The notes: generated by a model not told the origin, from the letters alone. A stretch of DNA of 64,000 nt from Candidatus Gastranaerophilales bacterium (GCA_944323145.1 CALURJ010000008.1:10727-74726), one strand, 5' to 3'; counted from the stretch's first letter, positions 2,259-32,500 are shown. Translations and numbers: made by a program.

Positions 2259-2288
2259 TTAACATAAGATTGATAAATAAGTTATACT
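2259..2288 (+). promoter_or_regulatory. Candidate sigma70 promoter of pilin-like locus A
   Basis: TTAACA (2259-2264), 18-bp spacer, TATACT (2283-2288), just upstream of RBS AAGGAGAGG (2297-2305) and ATG 2310. Confidence 0.3.
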
Positions 2289-2339
2289 AAAGATATAAGG
2301 AGAGGTTTTATGAAAAAATTTAGATTATTAGTGAACTTC

Positions 2340-2349
2340 GGGGGGGGGG
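2340..2349 (+). repeat. G10 homopolymer tract (candidate slipped-strand phase-variation site)
   Basis: Ten consecutive G, 30 nt after ATG 2310. G11 or G8 would fuse the ATG to the pilin frame. G10 gives a stop at 2355. Confidence 0.8.
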
Positions 2350-2587
2350 CACTTTAGGCTCTGCCGGAGGCTCAGAGGTTAAGAGGTCAGGAAGGCAAGC
2401 AGTTATCTGCGTGCATAGCACGCAAAAAAATAAATTCCTTCCCTTATTAGGGAAGGTTTGGCAGGGTTTCAATTATGCTGTTTTTCTACCCACCCCTAAC
2501 TTCTATGTTATAAAGAAGTGGATGAGTAATTCATTGAAACGAACTTCTCGTCCTAACGTCTTATCGTCTTACCGCCCCAAAAAATGT
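2350..2587 (+). repeat. Leader cassette copy A (8-nt purine array, two GC hairpins, 8-nt array)
   Basis: Array ggaggctc/agaggtta/agaggtca/ggaaggca (2366-2406). Hairpins gcgtgc-ata-gcacgc (2409-2423) and ccttccc-ttatta-gggaagg (2437-2456). Array cgtcctaa/cgtcttat/cgtcttac (2545-2578). Shares modules with copies B and C. Confidence 0.6.
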
Positions 2588-3363
2588 GCGTTTACTTTGG
2601 CAGAAGTTTTAATCACCCTTGGCATTATCGGAGTAGTTTCTGTACTTGTATTATCGAGTGTAATCCCTTCAATTCAGGACAAACAAAATATCGCCAAATG
2701 GAAAAAAGAATATTCTGTCATAAATAATGCCTTTAATGCAGTGTTAGCAAAAGATGTAACAATATATGATCAGGGAGGATATACAGATGAATTTGTTGAT
2801 GCTTTTCAAAAGGAATTACGTATAGTTGATTACTGCGGTATTAGTGCGGATGATGTTCCATCAGATAAAATATGTGATAATTTTAATACATATAAAAACG
2901 TGAAATACAAGTGGTCAGGGGTTGCAAATATCTATTCCCGTTACAAAGCTCTGGGAGTAAGAACAGAATCGAATCCCGGCAGTTATTCCCCTTATGGGAT
3001 CCAGGCATATAACTTTAGCAGACTTGCCCTTCTATTAAATGATGGAGCAGTAATATATTTAGGTGAAAGTCATGGTGGCCCTTGGATAGTCGTTGATGTA
3101 AATAATTTTAATAAAGGCCAAATGAATTCGGTCGTGATGTATTTGTAATCCATGTATCCTCTAACATATCGATAGGTAGATATAACCTTCAGGCAATGGG
3201 TGCTGAAGGTACGTATAACAAAGCCTCGAATGGAGATATTTGTGAGTGTTCCAAAGATAAAGGAAAAAAGTCTGCAACTTATATAGGTGATGCGGCGGGT
3301 TCAAATGGTGAAGTAATCTCCGGTGCCTGCTGTTCCGCTAAATATCTTCTTGAATAAGTTATT

Positions 3364-4035
3364 TTAATATAACACTCCAGAATCAAGAATTTTCTGAACT
3401 TCGTGATTCATGATGGAATGAATTTCATCTATTGATTTGGTACCGTCAATACTGATGAAATTGTATTCAGATTTCATTTTTTCGTATTGTTCAAGACATT
3501 TGTCCTGATATATTTCAAAACTTTTGTAAAAGTCTGATGAAAAACCGACATCACGACCGCTTTCATAATAATTTAAGCCTGTTGTACCGATAATCCTTTT
3601 CAGTAGAACATCTACAGGCATATCAAGATAAAAAATCAAGTCGGGTTCAGGTGCATAGTCATATAGATTTTTTACCCATTCAATATCCTGTCCTCTTACA
3701 ACATCACGGGCTAGAGCAGTATAATAATATCTGTCTAAAAGCACAATAAAGCCTGATTTTAGAGCAGGAATAATTGTGTTTTCAAGTCTGTCGGCAAAAT
3801 CCGCGGCATAAAGCAGGCTGTAAGTTGTGGCATTAAGTAAATTTCTTTCCTTTGCATCATCAATAACATTTGCAATCAAACGTGATGTCTTCCACTCAGA
3901 TATTATGACGCCGTATGACTGTGCTTGAATAGATTTCTTTAAAAGCTGCAGCTGTGTTGATTTACCGGATCCGTCAGTTCCTTCTATAACAATAAGCAAA
4001 CCTTCATATCCATGTTTTGTTTTGAATTGTGTCAT
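3364..4035 (-). CDS. Thymidylate kinase-like P-loop kinase (paralog 2)
   Basis: 223 aa. P-loop IEGTDGSGKST and DRY motif (LLDRYYYTALARD). Its start overlaps the upstream stop by 1 nt (TAATG at 4035). Confidence 0.75.
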   Translation of the reverse strand: MTQFKTKHGYEGLLIVIEGTDGSGKSTQLQLLKKSIQAQSYGVIISEWKTSRLIANVIDDAKERNLLNATTYSLLYAADFADRLENTIIPALKSGFIVLLDRYYYTALARDVVRGQDIEWVKNLYDYAPEPDLIFYLDMPVDVLLKRIIGTTGLNYYESGRDVGFSSDFYKSFEIYQDKCLEQYEKMKSEYNFISIDGTKSIDEIHSIMNHEVQKILDSGVLY

Positions 4036-4709
4036 TATATGTTTACTCCTTTGTTATTTAGAACACTTTTAAGCATTTCTCTTATCCTTACCTGTTTGGA
4101 ATGTATTGAATCCATAGCATCGAGTTTGACCAGTCCGAATTCATCTACCATTTTTTGATATTCATTTATTACTCTGCCCTGAAAGATTATATAACTTTCA
4201 TAAGGGTCATTACTTAATTTTAAATCCATTCCGGCTTCGTAAAATTTTGGCGCACGATTTGAACAAATCCTTTCCATAGCATCTTTGGGAGCGATGTCAA
4301 AATAAATAGCTAAATCCGGCTTTATTGCAAAATTATAAACATTTCTAACCCATTGCGGATCAACACCTCTTGCAACATCTCTTGCAAAAGCCGTATAAGC
4401 GTATCTGTCGGCTAAAACAATAAAACCTGCTTTCAGAGCCGGATCAATAACCTGTTTCAGTCTGTCTGCAAAGTCAACTGCGTGCAAAAGAGAAAAAGTC
4501 CGCGGGGATAACATATTTTTCTTTTTTGCAAGTTTTGTTGTCTGACATATTAATTCCGAGGAGTTCCATTCGGTAAAAATAACGTCGTGTCCTGTAGATT
4601 TCAGCCAGTCACGTAAAAGAGCTAACTGTGTAGATTTTCCGGAACCGTCAATCCCTTCAACACAGACTAAAGTGCCTTTATAATTATGCTGCTCAGTTAA
4701 CTTGGACAC
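4035..4709 (-). CDS. Thymidylate kinase-like P-loop kinase (paralog 1)
   Basis: 224 aa. P-loop VEGIDGSGKST and DRY motif (LADRYAYTAFARD). Clearly paralogous to the downstream ORF. Confidence 0.75.
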   Translation of the reverse strand: MSKLTEQHNYKGTLVCVEGIDGSGKSTQLALLRDWLKSTGHDVIFTEWNSSELICQTTKLAKKKNMLSPRTFSLLHAVDFADRLKQVIDPALKAGFIVLADRYAYTAFARDVARGVDPQWVRNVYNFAIKPDLAIYFDIAPKDAMERICSNRAPKFYEAGMDLKLSNDPYESYIIFQGRVINEYQKMVDEFGLVKLDAMDSIHSKQVRIREMLKSVLNNKGVNI

Positions 4710-28868: not shown

Positions 28869-29927
28869 TTACTTGTAACTCTCTAAAAGCATTTGTTTAG
28901 ATGTCTTGCCGCCTTTTTCAACTGTATTCGCCCCGCATGAAATGCCTGAATCAACTTTCAGATTATAGCCGTCAGAAGAGCTAATCCCAAATTGAAACAA
29001 ATCGTATCCCCATTTATTAGGCCCTTTTCTACCGTTAATGTCTATGGCAAACATTGGATAGCTTCCTTCATAACACCACATCATTATGGTACCGTCTGAT
29101 AGAACCCAGACCATATTCGAATTTGAAATTGAGCTTTTTGTAAAGCAGGTGCAGCCTTTAGTAGAATTTTCAATTTCTTCTTCTGTTGCGTCAGGATTAT
29201 TTTCCGCAAAAATTTCATTATTCCCTTTGTATTCAGGGATACAGCCGTTGTTCAATGCATTCCCGTTACATTCTTTTATTATTGACATGTTTTTCTTTAG
29301 TTCTTGAGCCGCAGCTTTGCATTTTCTGCTTCCATCGCTAGTATTTCCTGCATGGTCGGGATAATAACATTCCGGAGCGTAGCCTAAATTATATTCTAAA
29401 GTTTTGTATGCATTTTGAATGGTGTTATAACTTTTTAAAAATTGTTTTTGCAAAACTTTTTGCTGATATTTCGCAGTAACCGCAGGTATAGTCATAGCCG
29501 CGACCACACCGATAATTCCGAGGGTGATAAGTACCTCCGCCAAAGTAAATGCAGCTCGACGGATATTGTGAGAGTAGGCTACGTGCGCAGCACCTTCTCC
29601 TGTGGGAGAGGGATGGGGTGAGGGTTCTTTTTCCCCTCCCTTGAGGGGAGGGGAAGTAAAGGGGTGGGTGAGATCAGAAGAACAGAAGACCGGAGGGCAG
29701 GAAGTCAGGCTAAAATTAGATGCAAAGATGCAAGGATGCATAGAGGCAAAGCTATTATCAATAATAAATTTTGTCCATGTTTTACCTAAATAGCTATAAA
29801 CGAAAATAGCCTGACCTCTTGACCTCTTGACCTCCGACCTTCCATCTAGCAACTTAGCTGCATCAATTTCTATCGTGTACGCGCTTTCGGGGGGGGGGCC
29901 GATTTTCAGCTGGTCATTCTCAACCAT
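28869..29927 (-). CDS. Pilin-like protein B with prepilin-type N-terminal motif and about 125-codon leader (phase-ON)
   Basis: RBS AAGAGGAG (29943-29936) and ATG 29927. A C10 tract is read as GPPP. The ORF stays open through the GC-rich cassette into RRAAFTLAEVLITLGIIGVVAA (motif at 29553-29533). The C-terminus has DINGRKGPNKWGYDLF, shared with locus A. The true start is uncertain. Confidence 0.6.
   Translation of the reverse strand: MVENDQLKIGPPPESAYTIEIDAAKLLDGRSEVKRSRGQAIFVYSYLGKTWTKFIIDNSFASMHPCIFASNFSLTSCPPVFCSSDLTHPFTSPPLKGGEKEPSPHPSPTGEGAAHVAYSHNIRRAAFTLAEVLITLGIIGVVAAMTIPAVTAKYQQKVLQKQFLKSYNTIQNAYKTLEYNLGYAPECYYPDHAGNTSDGSRKCKAAAQELKKNMSIIKECNGNALNNGCIPEYKGNNEIFAENNPDATEEEIENSTKGCTCFTKSSISNSNMVWVLSDGTIMMWCYEGSYPMFAIDINGRKGPNKWGYDLFQFGISSSDGYNLKVDSGISCGANTVEKGGKTSKQMLLESYK
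29554..29888 (-). repeat. Leader cassette copy B
   Basis: Gene-sense modules in order: ggaaggtc/ggaggtca/agaggtca/agaggtca array, about 70-nt AT-rich core, gcatcctt/gcatcttt/gcatctaa array, pyrimidine array tgacttcc/tgccctcc/ggtcttct/gttcttct, hairpin cccctccc-ctcaa-gggagggg, and a small gtgc-tgc-gcac hairpin. Confidence 0.65.
29889..29898 (-). repeat. C10 (G10 on + strand) homopolymer tract in the 5' coding region
   Basis: Ten consecutive G on the + strand, 27 nt after ATG 29927. At this length the ORF is in frame. Confidence 0.8.
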
Positions 29928-32229: not shown

Positions 32230-32500
32230 ATATGTTATTAGAAGTCGATAAGTCGATAAGACGTTAAGACGTTAAGTCATTACGGTGCGCTTCGCGCACG
32301 TAAAAATTTTCCTTCCCTAGCTAGGGAAGGCTAGGATGGGTGATAATTAGAGGCGAAGAGGCATAGATGCTAAGAGGCAAAGCTAGTATCAATAATGAAT
32401 TTTGCTGCAATTTTACCAAAATATCTATAAATGAAAACAGCCTGCCCTCTTACCCTCCTATCCTCTGTAGGCGTATATTTCCCTCTCTTGAGAGAGGAAA
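32230..32500 (-). repeat. Orphan leader cassette copy C (no pilin body)
   Basis: Collinear with copy B: purine array ggatagga/gggtaaga/gggcagg, a near-identical AT-rich core, and a gcctct arrays module. Then hairpins ccttccc-tagcta-gggaagg (32311-32330) and gtgcgc-ttc-gcgcac (32285-32299). Then exact 8-mer tandem repeats agtcgata x2 and agacgtta x2 (32242-32285). Contains in-frame stops. Confidence 0.65.

Follow-up and report, generated by a model that had tools for sequence, protein, structure and literature searches.

Why does a gene possess a start codon in one reading frame and the rest of its product in another, with a run of ten G residues between them? This question is raised by locus A, a pilin-like gene found in a stretch of 64,000 nucleotides (nt) from Candidatus Gastranaerophilales bacterium (GCA_944323145.1 CALURJ010000008.1:10727-74726), which was analysed at its full length and is called here the window. 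The Gastranaerophilales are relatives of cyanobacteria, uncultured and widespread in the gut, and to our knowledge their surface biology has hardly been described. Judging from the sequence of the locus and those of its relatives, locus A is probably a phase-OFF and recently inactivated copy from a family of pilin-like genes switched by a homopolymer, in which slipped-strand phase variation would set the frame and the spacer between the homopolymer and the pilin would encode a long cleavable leader.

At the 5' end of locus A, an original prediction, made by reading the window without any other data, had placed a ribosome binding site, ATG 2310, 10 codons, a G10 tract (2340-2349) and a stop at 2355, and all of them were found again. 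Translated at G10, the ATG frame gives MKKFRLLVNFGGGAL and is ended by TAG 2355-2357. One G added to the tract fuses this frame with the pilin frame, as had been foreseen. The pilin frame is indeed open from 2324, and it continues through the spacer (241 nt, not the 240 nt initially given) into KKCA/FTLAEVLITLGIIGVV, where the slash marks the predicted cleavage site and the F lies at 2591. In other words, the tract is part of the coding sequence, 3' of the start codon and 5' of the functional domain, and a change in its length shifts the frame. Runs of at least 8 G occur only twice in the 64-kb window (versus 0.23 expected by chance), and they coincide with its only two FTLAEVL-type motifs: that of locus A (+ strand) and that of a second pilin-like gene, locus B (- strand). 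Both tracts read TTCGGGGGGGGGGC on the + strand (2337-2350 in locus A; 29886-29899 in locus B) while the genes lie on opposite strands, and locus B has the same layout with C10 in its mRNA, so the proposal of a poly-G tract in one mRNA and a poly-C tract in the other was correct. Locus B is in frame (ON) at C10 in the window and in three other assemblies. Its start peptide is not alignable to that of locus A, and the two spacers share short repeat modules only.

A second disruption had been proposed further downstream, and its existence was confirmed: across AAAGGCCAAAT (3113-3123), reading in the pilin frame gives KGQMNSVVMYL and stops at 3146-3148, while one added base restores KGPNEFGRDVF...CCSAKYLLE up to 3357, that is, the conserved C-terminus of the homologues. 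The missing base is, in any case, a G and not a C, since strains that are intact here have GGGCC (GGG has become GG at 3116-3117); the restored protein is identical. This deletion removes the last 79 residues of the product.

Regarding the nature of the product, the cleavage site of locus A (KKCA/FTLAEVLITLGIIGVVSVLVL) presents G/A at -1, F at +1, E at +5 and the expected hydrophobic stretch of about 20 residues. Its protein reaches 22.5 bits with N_methyl (Pfam PF07963; cutoff 21.2) and 18.9 bits with IV_pilin_GFxxxE (NCBIfam TIGR02532; cutoff 16.3), and both thresholds are also passed by the protein of locus B. A profile search against PDB sequences gave matches confined to the N-terminal helices of pilins. 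In the AlphaFold model of an intact orthologue (P0001, 86% identical; mean predicted local distance difference test score, pLDDT, of 83), a disordered leader (residues 1-67, pLDDT <50) is followed by a helix (residues 74-124) and a beta-rich domain. The Cys-rich head domain of this orthologue shows pLDDT >90 across most of residues 100-326. According to these predictions, the genes appear to be pilin-like by their N-terminus, with a head domain of undefined fold class.

Locus A was then recovered from other assemblies by means of the neighbouring thymidylate-kinase-like gene (3364-4035) and of the protein itself. The independent metagenome assemblies of the same species are 99.4-99.95% identical, except for L002 (98.6%) and L086 (94.7%) (extra differences in neighbouring genes), and the tract lengths reported throughout are those of consensus assemblies. 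With identical flanks, the tract is G10 in the window, L084, L088 and L089, and G9 in L083 and L086; it is G11 in L001 and L002, via a C-to-G change at 2339 beside the tract. The GGCC deletion allele is present in seven assemblies (the window, L001, L002, L084, L088, L089 and L091), a count from which a same-sample contig of the L100-series was left out. The remaining two, L083 and L086, have AAAGGGCCAAAT and are in frame at the 3116 site; their lesion is instead G2777T, a nonsense change of GGA to TGA in the 63rd codon of the mature part, and gene calling yields products of 85 and 152 amino acids (aa). Two independent null mutations are found, then, in lineages that differ at about 5 positions per 2.6 kb (approximately 0.2%). 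Taken together, the tract variants, the shared deletion and G2777T argue that locus A is phase-OFF and decaying, one of the options that had been advanced for it. A comparison of the orthologous locus had been suggested as a check, with a uniform G10 as the outcome that would speak against a switch; lengths actually vary from G9 to G11.

The architecture of locus A is that of a family. More than 1400 relatives of the corrected protein were found, and a genome scan places them in Candidatus Gastranaerophilales / Melainabacteria of the human and animal gut. For the family analysis, GTDB species representatives supplied 80 loci, to which the window was added; FTLAEVL motifs number 90 in this set. 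In 47 of the 90 cases, a G/C tract of 8-13 nt is found 17-542 nt upstream of the motif, and it measures exactly 10 nt in 33 of those 47. A Shine-Dalgarno (SD)-type site and an ATG precede the tract in 45/47, usually by some 8-12 codons (SD sites were scored in a range of 4-16 nt before the start codon that had been chosen). Over 3074 codons, the spacers contain a single stop in the pilin frame, versus 270 and 215 in the other two frames; stop-free spacers amount to 46/47, as compared to 7.1 expected (maximum 12) in composition-matched shuffles. There is no in-frame ATG between the tract and the motif in 24 of the 47 tract loci, so these depend on the upstream start. As for the 43 loci that have no tract, 33 possess an ordinary in-frame SD and ATG, usually 4-10 codons upstream and, in several loci, 87-179 codons upstream; long leaders are, hence, encoded as such. 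Some homologues carry a short canonical leader (e.g., MKHHYYKKQG/FTLAEVL), and many others are called with 60-170 odd N-terminal residues made of modules such as FLPLLGKV, YPPQPSLIREG, GATHVA and SLKRTY..SSLKKRAA. Position -1 is occupied by A or G in 89/89 loci, and about two K/R are found at -6 to -2 regardless of leader length, which across the tract loci ranges from 9 to 190 residues.

The flanks of the tract are also shared. Read in G orientation, they are TC-G(n)-CA for G-type and C-type loci alike (C at -1 in 43/47 and at +1 in 40/47), which generalises the TTCG10C context that had been noticed on the + strand of the window and possibly reflects a strand- or polymerase-level constraint. 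The idea that the G run always lies on the leading strand was examined by means of GC skew: the mean in gene orientation is +0.084 for G-type and +0.014 for C-type loci, a comparison that is confounded by coding-strand bias. A scan of Joint Genome Institute (JGI) metagenomes for the tract plus the downstream module gave 0 matches.

Both states of the switch exist in nature: ON alleles are those of L085, L101, L102 and locus B, and OFF alleles are those of locus A, L087, L090 and the P0038 locus. The L085 tract, of 10 nt, contains an interruption (GGGAGGGGGG), and an SD and ATG are in frame with an open reading frame (ORF) of 323 aa, which makes L085, in effect, a locked-ON allele; its sister alleles in L087 and L090 have G11 and are out of frame. 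At the P0038 locus (L096-L100), where the pilin-like gene lies beside a MshEN/T2SSE (pilB-like) ATPase gene, each of the five contigs shown has a G10 tract and is OFF. The related L101, which shares the downstream sequence, is ON with G11, and L102, a C-type allele, is ON at C10. ON-type proteins, with M...GGGG/PPP... near the start, number about 12 among the 120 best homologues. At the P0038 locus, the canonical internal Met is replaced (TEYRYFKKQG).

The mechanism that these data suggest would operate as follows: (i) the real start (promoter, SD, ATG and about 10 codons) is parted from the prepilin motif (A or G followed by FTLAEVL) by the tract and a stop-free spacer; (ii) the length of the tract sets the frame, and one base gained or lost, presumably by slipped-strand mispairing, would turn the gene ON or OFF; (iii) in the ON state, the spacer would be translated as an unusually long class-III leader; and (iv) a prepilin peptidase would cut this leader at the conserved A/G-F site. 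Locus A is OFF at G10 and would be ON at G11, apart from the G lost at 3116-3117; such decay is expected where most cells keep a gene OFF and thereby shield it from purifying selection.

Several points weigh against this explanation. Most importantly, 46 of the 47 consensus tracts are OFF by exactly one base (a shift of +1 is required in 37 and of -1 in 9), and the probability of finding one or no ON tract if a third were ON by chance is 1.3e-7. Tract length is sharply peaked at 10, and it is invariant in the five contigs of the P0038 locus and in four assemblies of locus B. Plain unselected slippage does not predict this OFF bias, so either default-OFF selection or non-standard decoding is required. 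Either (i) 10 nt may be the mutational optimum and the loci default-OFF, with a few family members expressed per cell; or (ii) the "OFF" alleles may be expressed because RNA polymerase or the ribosome slips on a run about as long as the hybrid. Besides, start codons were assigned by a simple heuristic (the nearest SD and ATG open to the tract), the head domain of P0001 had no match with E <=0.001 in a Foldseek search against PDB, and we know of no experimental precedent for prepilin leaders of 90-190 residues.

The OFF bias is the starting point of the alternative that survives best, programmed recoding, in which the tract would be a site for RNA polymerase slippage or ribosomal frameshifting. 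Being one base out of frame would then be the normal condition: slippage at TC-G10-CA would bring a set fraction of products into the pilin frame, family-wide and on G/C runs, giving constitutive low-level expression in place of heritable switching, with leaders of at least 100 residues derived from translated repeats. The one-base offset of nearly all tracts and the peak at 10 nt suit this proposal, the RNA-DNA hybrid of the elongation complex being of about 10 nt, and so does the gene beside the pilB-like ATPase, which is G10 and OFF in every contig shown, from several assemblers. Likewise, G-type and C-type tracts behave alike and keep the TC-G10-CA flanks whatever their orientation, which points to a property at the level of DNA or RNA polymerase. 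A slippage site should nevertheless combine a fixed tract, a uniform offset and no in-frame alleles, whereas here the offset is +1 at 37 loci and -1 at 9, strains differ in tract length, and in-frame alleles are found in L101, L102, locus B and L085 (the last one interrupted, non-slippery and in standard frame). Moreover, the bacterial transcriptional slippage sites known to us are A/T runs. Switching at the DNA level is favoured by offsets in both directions, by the locked in-frame allele and by the length differences among strains, and we regard recoding as unlikely.

The original prediction had also offered ATG 2522 as an alternative start, which would reduce the upstream ATG and the tract to an upstream ORF (uORF). 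In such a reading, the uORF would be short and regulatory, and an extended -10 promoter inside the locus would yield a leaderless or near-leaderless mRNA for the pilin. An extended -10-like sequence (TGtTATAAA) does lie 7 nt before this ATG, and comparable TATAAT-N6-ATG modules are in frame in 6/47 tract loci and in some tract-less loci. The leader would then measure 23 residues (93 from ATG 2310 in the G11 reading), within the range known for type IVb prepilins. A tract-independent start of the leaderless type is, therefore, possible for locus A. As a general explanation, by contrast, it meets the 24 tract loci that lack any in-frame ATG 3' of the tract, and it leaves unexplained why the pilin frame is stop-free also upstream of such ATGs; these two facts favour the upstream start over a mere uORF. 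Furthermore, the module is absent from the sister allele that occupies the same slot in L085 and L087, the scan found no -35 element, and the product would still be truncated by the deletion at 3116, without its last 79 residues. The probability that we concede to this explanation is, in consequence, small. In DNA terms, the recurrent in-frame "CYNSDM" module corresponds to TGTTATAAT-N6-ATG (L007, L009, L023, L038, L077 and window 2506-2524), which reads like an extended -10 box positioned as for a leaderless mRNA.

That locus A is a silent donor cassette of the pilS type, recombining into an expressed pilin locus, had been mentioned as well. Other strains do hold a different pilin gene in this slot, and the start module of L001 and L002 is suggestive of patchy recombination; however, locus A has its own promoter-like site, SD, ATG and N-terminal motif, with a complete 5' end, whereas pilS-type cassettes lack promoter, start codon and conserved 5' end, and its link to locus B is limited to short dispersed repeats, so that a pilS-like role seems very improbable. 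Least credible of all is an assembly or sequencing artefact hiding an intact gene with G11 and GGGCC: both sites are homopolymers, error-prone on some platforms, but GGCC recurs in six other independent assemblies, three of which also have G10; GGGCC goes together with a nonsense codon and G9 in the alternative lineage; and the assembly is not frameshift-prone because all 45 window ORFs of at least 180 aa are otherwise long and tightly packed.

The start module just referred to differs from that of the window at 9 positions in 30 nt, versus 1 in the next 3.1 kb (L001 1-57 and L002 1-32, compared with window 2306-2339), which suggests patchy recombination or hypervariation of this segment. Both contigs end just 5' of the module, and no donor for the diverged version was found among the fetched family loci. 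Mutagenesis by a diversity-generating retroelement (DGR) was considered and may be involved: 4 of the 6 substitutions are at A positions, but there are indels as well.

The features of loci A and B are compiled in Table 1.

Table 1. Positions of the elements of loci A and B, counted from the first nucleotide of the window.
Feature	Position	Strand	Remarks
Locus A, promoter-like site TTAACA-18 nt-TATACT, directly 5' of SD and ATG	2259..2288	+	10/12 matches; consensus scan only
Locus A, SD AAGGAGAGG	2297..2305	+	
Locus A, start module: ATG 2310 and 10 codons, then tract	2310..2357	+	at G10, MKKFRLLVNFGGGAL and then stop (OFF)
Locus A, G10 homopolymer, frame-setting tract	2340..2349	+	ON lengths would be G11 or G8
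Locus A, predicted junction peptide across the tract			e.g., NFGGGGTLGSAGGSEVK
Locus A, spacer of 241 nt	2350..2590	+	no stops in pilin frame; hairpin repeat modules
Locus A, possible internal start: extended -10-like TGtTATAAA (2506-2514), 7 nt, ATG 2522	2506..2524	+	23-aa leader MSNSLKRTSRPNVLSSYRPKKCA
Locus A, pilin-like mature region from FTLAEVLITLGIIGVV (N-methylation motif, E at +5)	2591..3148	+	frameshift-truncated, stop 3146-3148
Locus A, frameshift site	3116..3119	+	GGCC here, GGGCC in L083 and L086 (1-nt deletion)
Locus A, out-of-frame rest of the C-terminal domain, NEFGRDVFVIHV...CCSAKYLLE	3121..3357	+	stop 3355-3357; matches homologue C-termini
Locus B: SD, ATG 29927, C10 in mRNA (29889-29898), stop-free spacer of 339 nt, F +1 at 29549	28869..29927	-	in frame (ON)

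The spacer of locus A has a fold z-score of -3.0 (hairpins). A known riboswitch or ribozyme was ruled out, as there was no Rfam match at the gathering threshold across the window or with E up to 1 on 2150-2700. The idea that the spacer is a dedicated cassette was also discarded: its modules are dispersed hairpin repeats which recur in other leaders, in the intergenic segments 32249-32271 and 32373-32451 of the window, and at non-leader sites, on either strand. These intergenic segments share hairpin modules with the leaders of both loci and have 86% identity over 80 nt to the spacer of locus B. The repeats appear to be dispersed elements of the REP (repetitive extragenic palindromic) or MITE (miniature inverted-repeat transposable element) type, and we read them as elements that landed in the leader-coding region and are tolerated while the frame stays open.

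In several relatives (P0018, P0045, P0050 and P0030), the 5' end of the pilin is partly tandem-duplicated upstream of the real one (...AFTLAEGATHVAHSNNIRRAA/FTLAEVL), with up to three units in P0050, and locus B has the GEGAAHVAYSHNIRRAA version of this duplication at 29552-29620; these may possibly be target-site duplications or recombination scars. As for the surroundings of locus A, two tandem paralogues of the thymidylate kinase family (223 and 224 aa) occupy 3364-4709 on the - strand with overlapping stop and start codons, and the first of them also has a weak dNK match. In L085, L087, L090 and L092, another pilin-like gene (309-323 aa; faint match to DUF6613) occupies the slot beside this pair of kinase-like genes, and the upstream neighbour is an HhH-GPD glycosylase gene that replaces the 210-aa ORF at 1517-2149.

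Homopolymer switching is known from other bacteria. The closest precedent is the Neisseria pilC gene, whose tract lies in the signal-peptide region. PMC5953494 says only that a poly-G/C run of at least 9 bases is within the reading frame, and that frameshifts switch it ON and OFF (Jonsson et al., 1991, as cited in PMC5953494). The likeness consists in a G/C run in the frame of a pilus-related gene, and the differences are that, here, (i) pilin-like subunits themselves are switched, with dozens of paralogues per lineage; (ii) what follows the tract is a stop-free spacer, up to 540 nt long, which would be translated as a leader; and (iii) nearly all consensus states are OFF, in an uncultured non-photosynthetic relative of cyanobacteria. 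Campylobacter jejuni and Helicobacter have AT-rich genomes with G/C runs of 8-13 bases confined to genes for surface structures; these runs are variable among strains and show a modal length per species. The present family resembles them in its AT-rich genome, G/C runs of 8-13 nt, surface genes, length variation among strains and modal length (for the Neisseria phasome, see PMC5953494). Tracts of Campylobacter and Helicobacter, in contrast, are distributed over many unrelated families and show mixed ON and OFF states, whereas both tracts of the window, and all those examined elsewhere, belong to one family and one position, and 46/47 are OFF in the consensus.

Like type IV prepilins and pseudopilins (class III), these proteins have A/G at -1, F at +1, E at +5, a hydrophobic helix and basic residues before the cut, and the model of P0001 predicts a long N-terminal helix and a beta-rich head. 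Known prepilin leaders have about 6-30 residues; unlike them, the leader would have 93 residues in locus A at G11 and be built of translated dispersed hairpin repeats. The head domain, unlike that of known pilins, lacks a detectable match in PDB. No pilus machinery appeared in a Pfam scan of 10 large ORFs of the window; pilA, B, C, D and T have been reported in the genus (PMC5877343). Turning to recoding, the following systems provide the comparison. In Thermus dnaX and in insertion sequence (IS) elements, slippage or programmed frameshifting takes place on homopolymers, specifically A/T runs, with a fixed direction of shift. Here, too, there is a homopolymer of about the length of the hybrid and a downstream frame that is one base off, but the runs are of G/C, shifts occur in both directions and in-frame alleles exist.

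The switch mechanism would be, in short, of a known kind; the extent that it reaches in Gastranaerophilales, the length of the translated leader and an OFF consensus that is nearly universal appear to be new, and a literature search found no paper describing a homopolymer-switched pilin family in this group. In terms of annotation, gene callers mis-annotate such loci as truncated or over-long ORFs, which will inflate the "pseudogene" counts of metagenome-assembled genomes. Concerning the proteins, the absence of stops from the spacers implies that prepilin leaders here exceed all those known to us several-fold in length. With its two null mutations in lineages that are hardly separated, locus A shows the cost that default-OFF genes are expected to pay. 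If the proposed explanation is true, these gut bacteria would possess a large contingency-gene system built on dozens of pilin-like genes, of the sort that pathogens use against immunity and phages.

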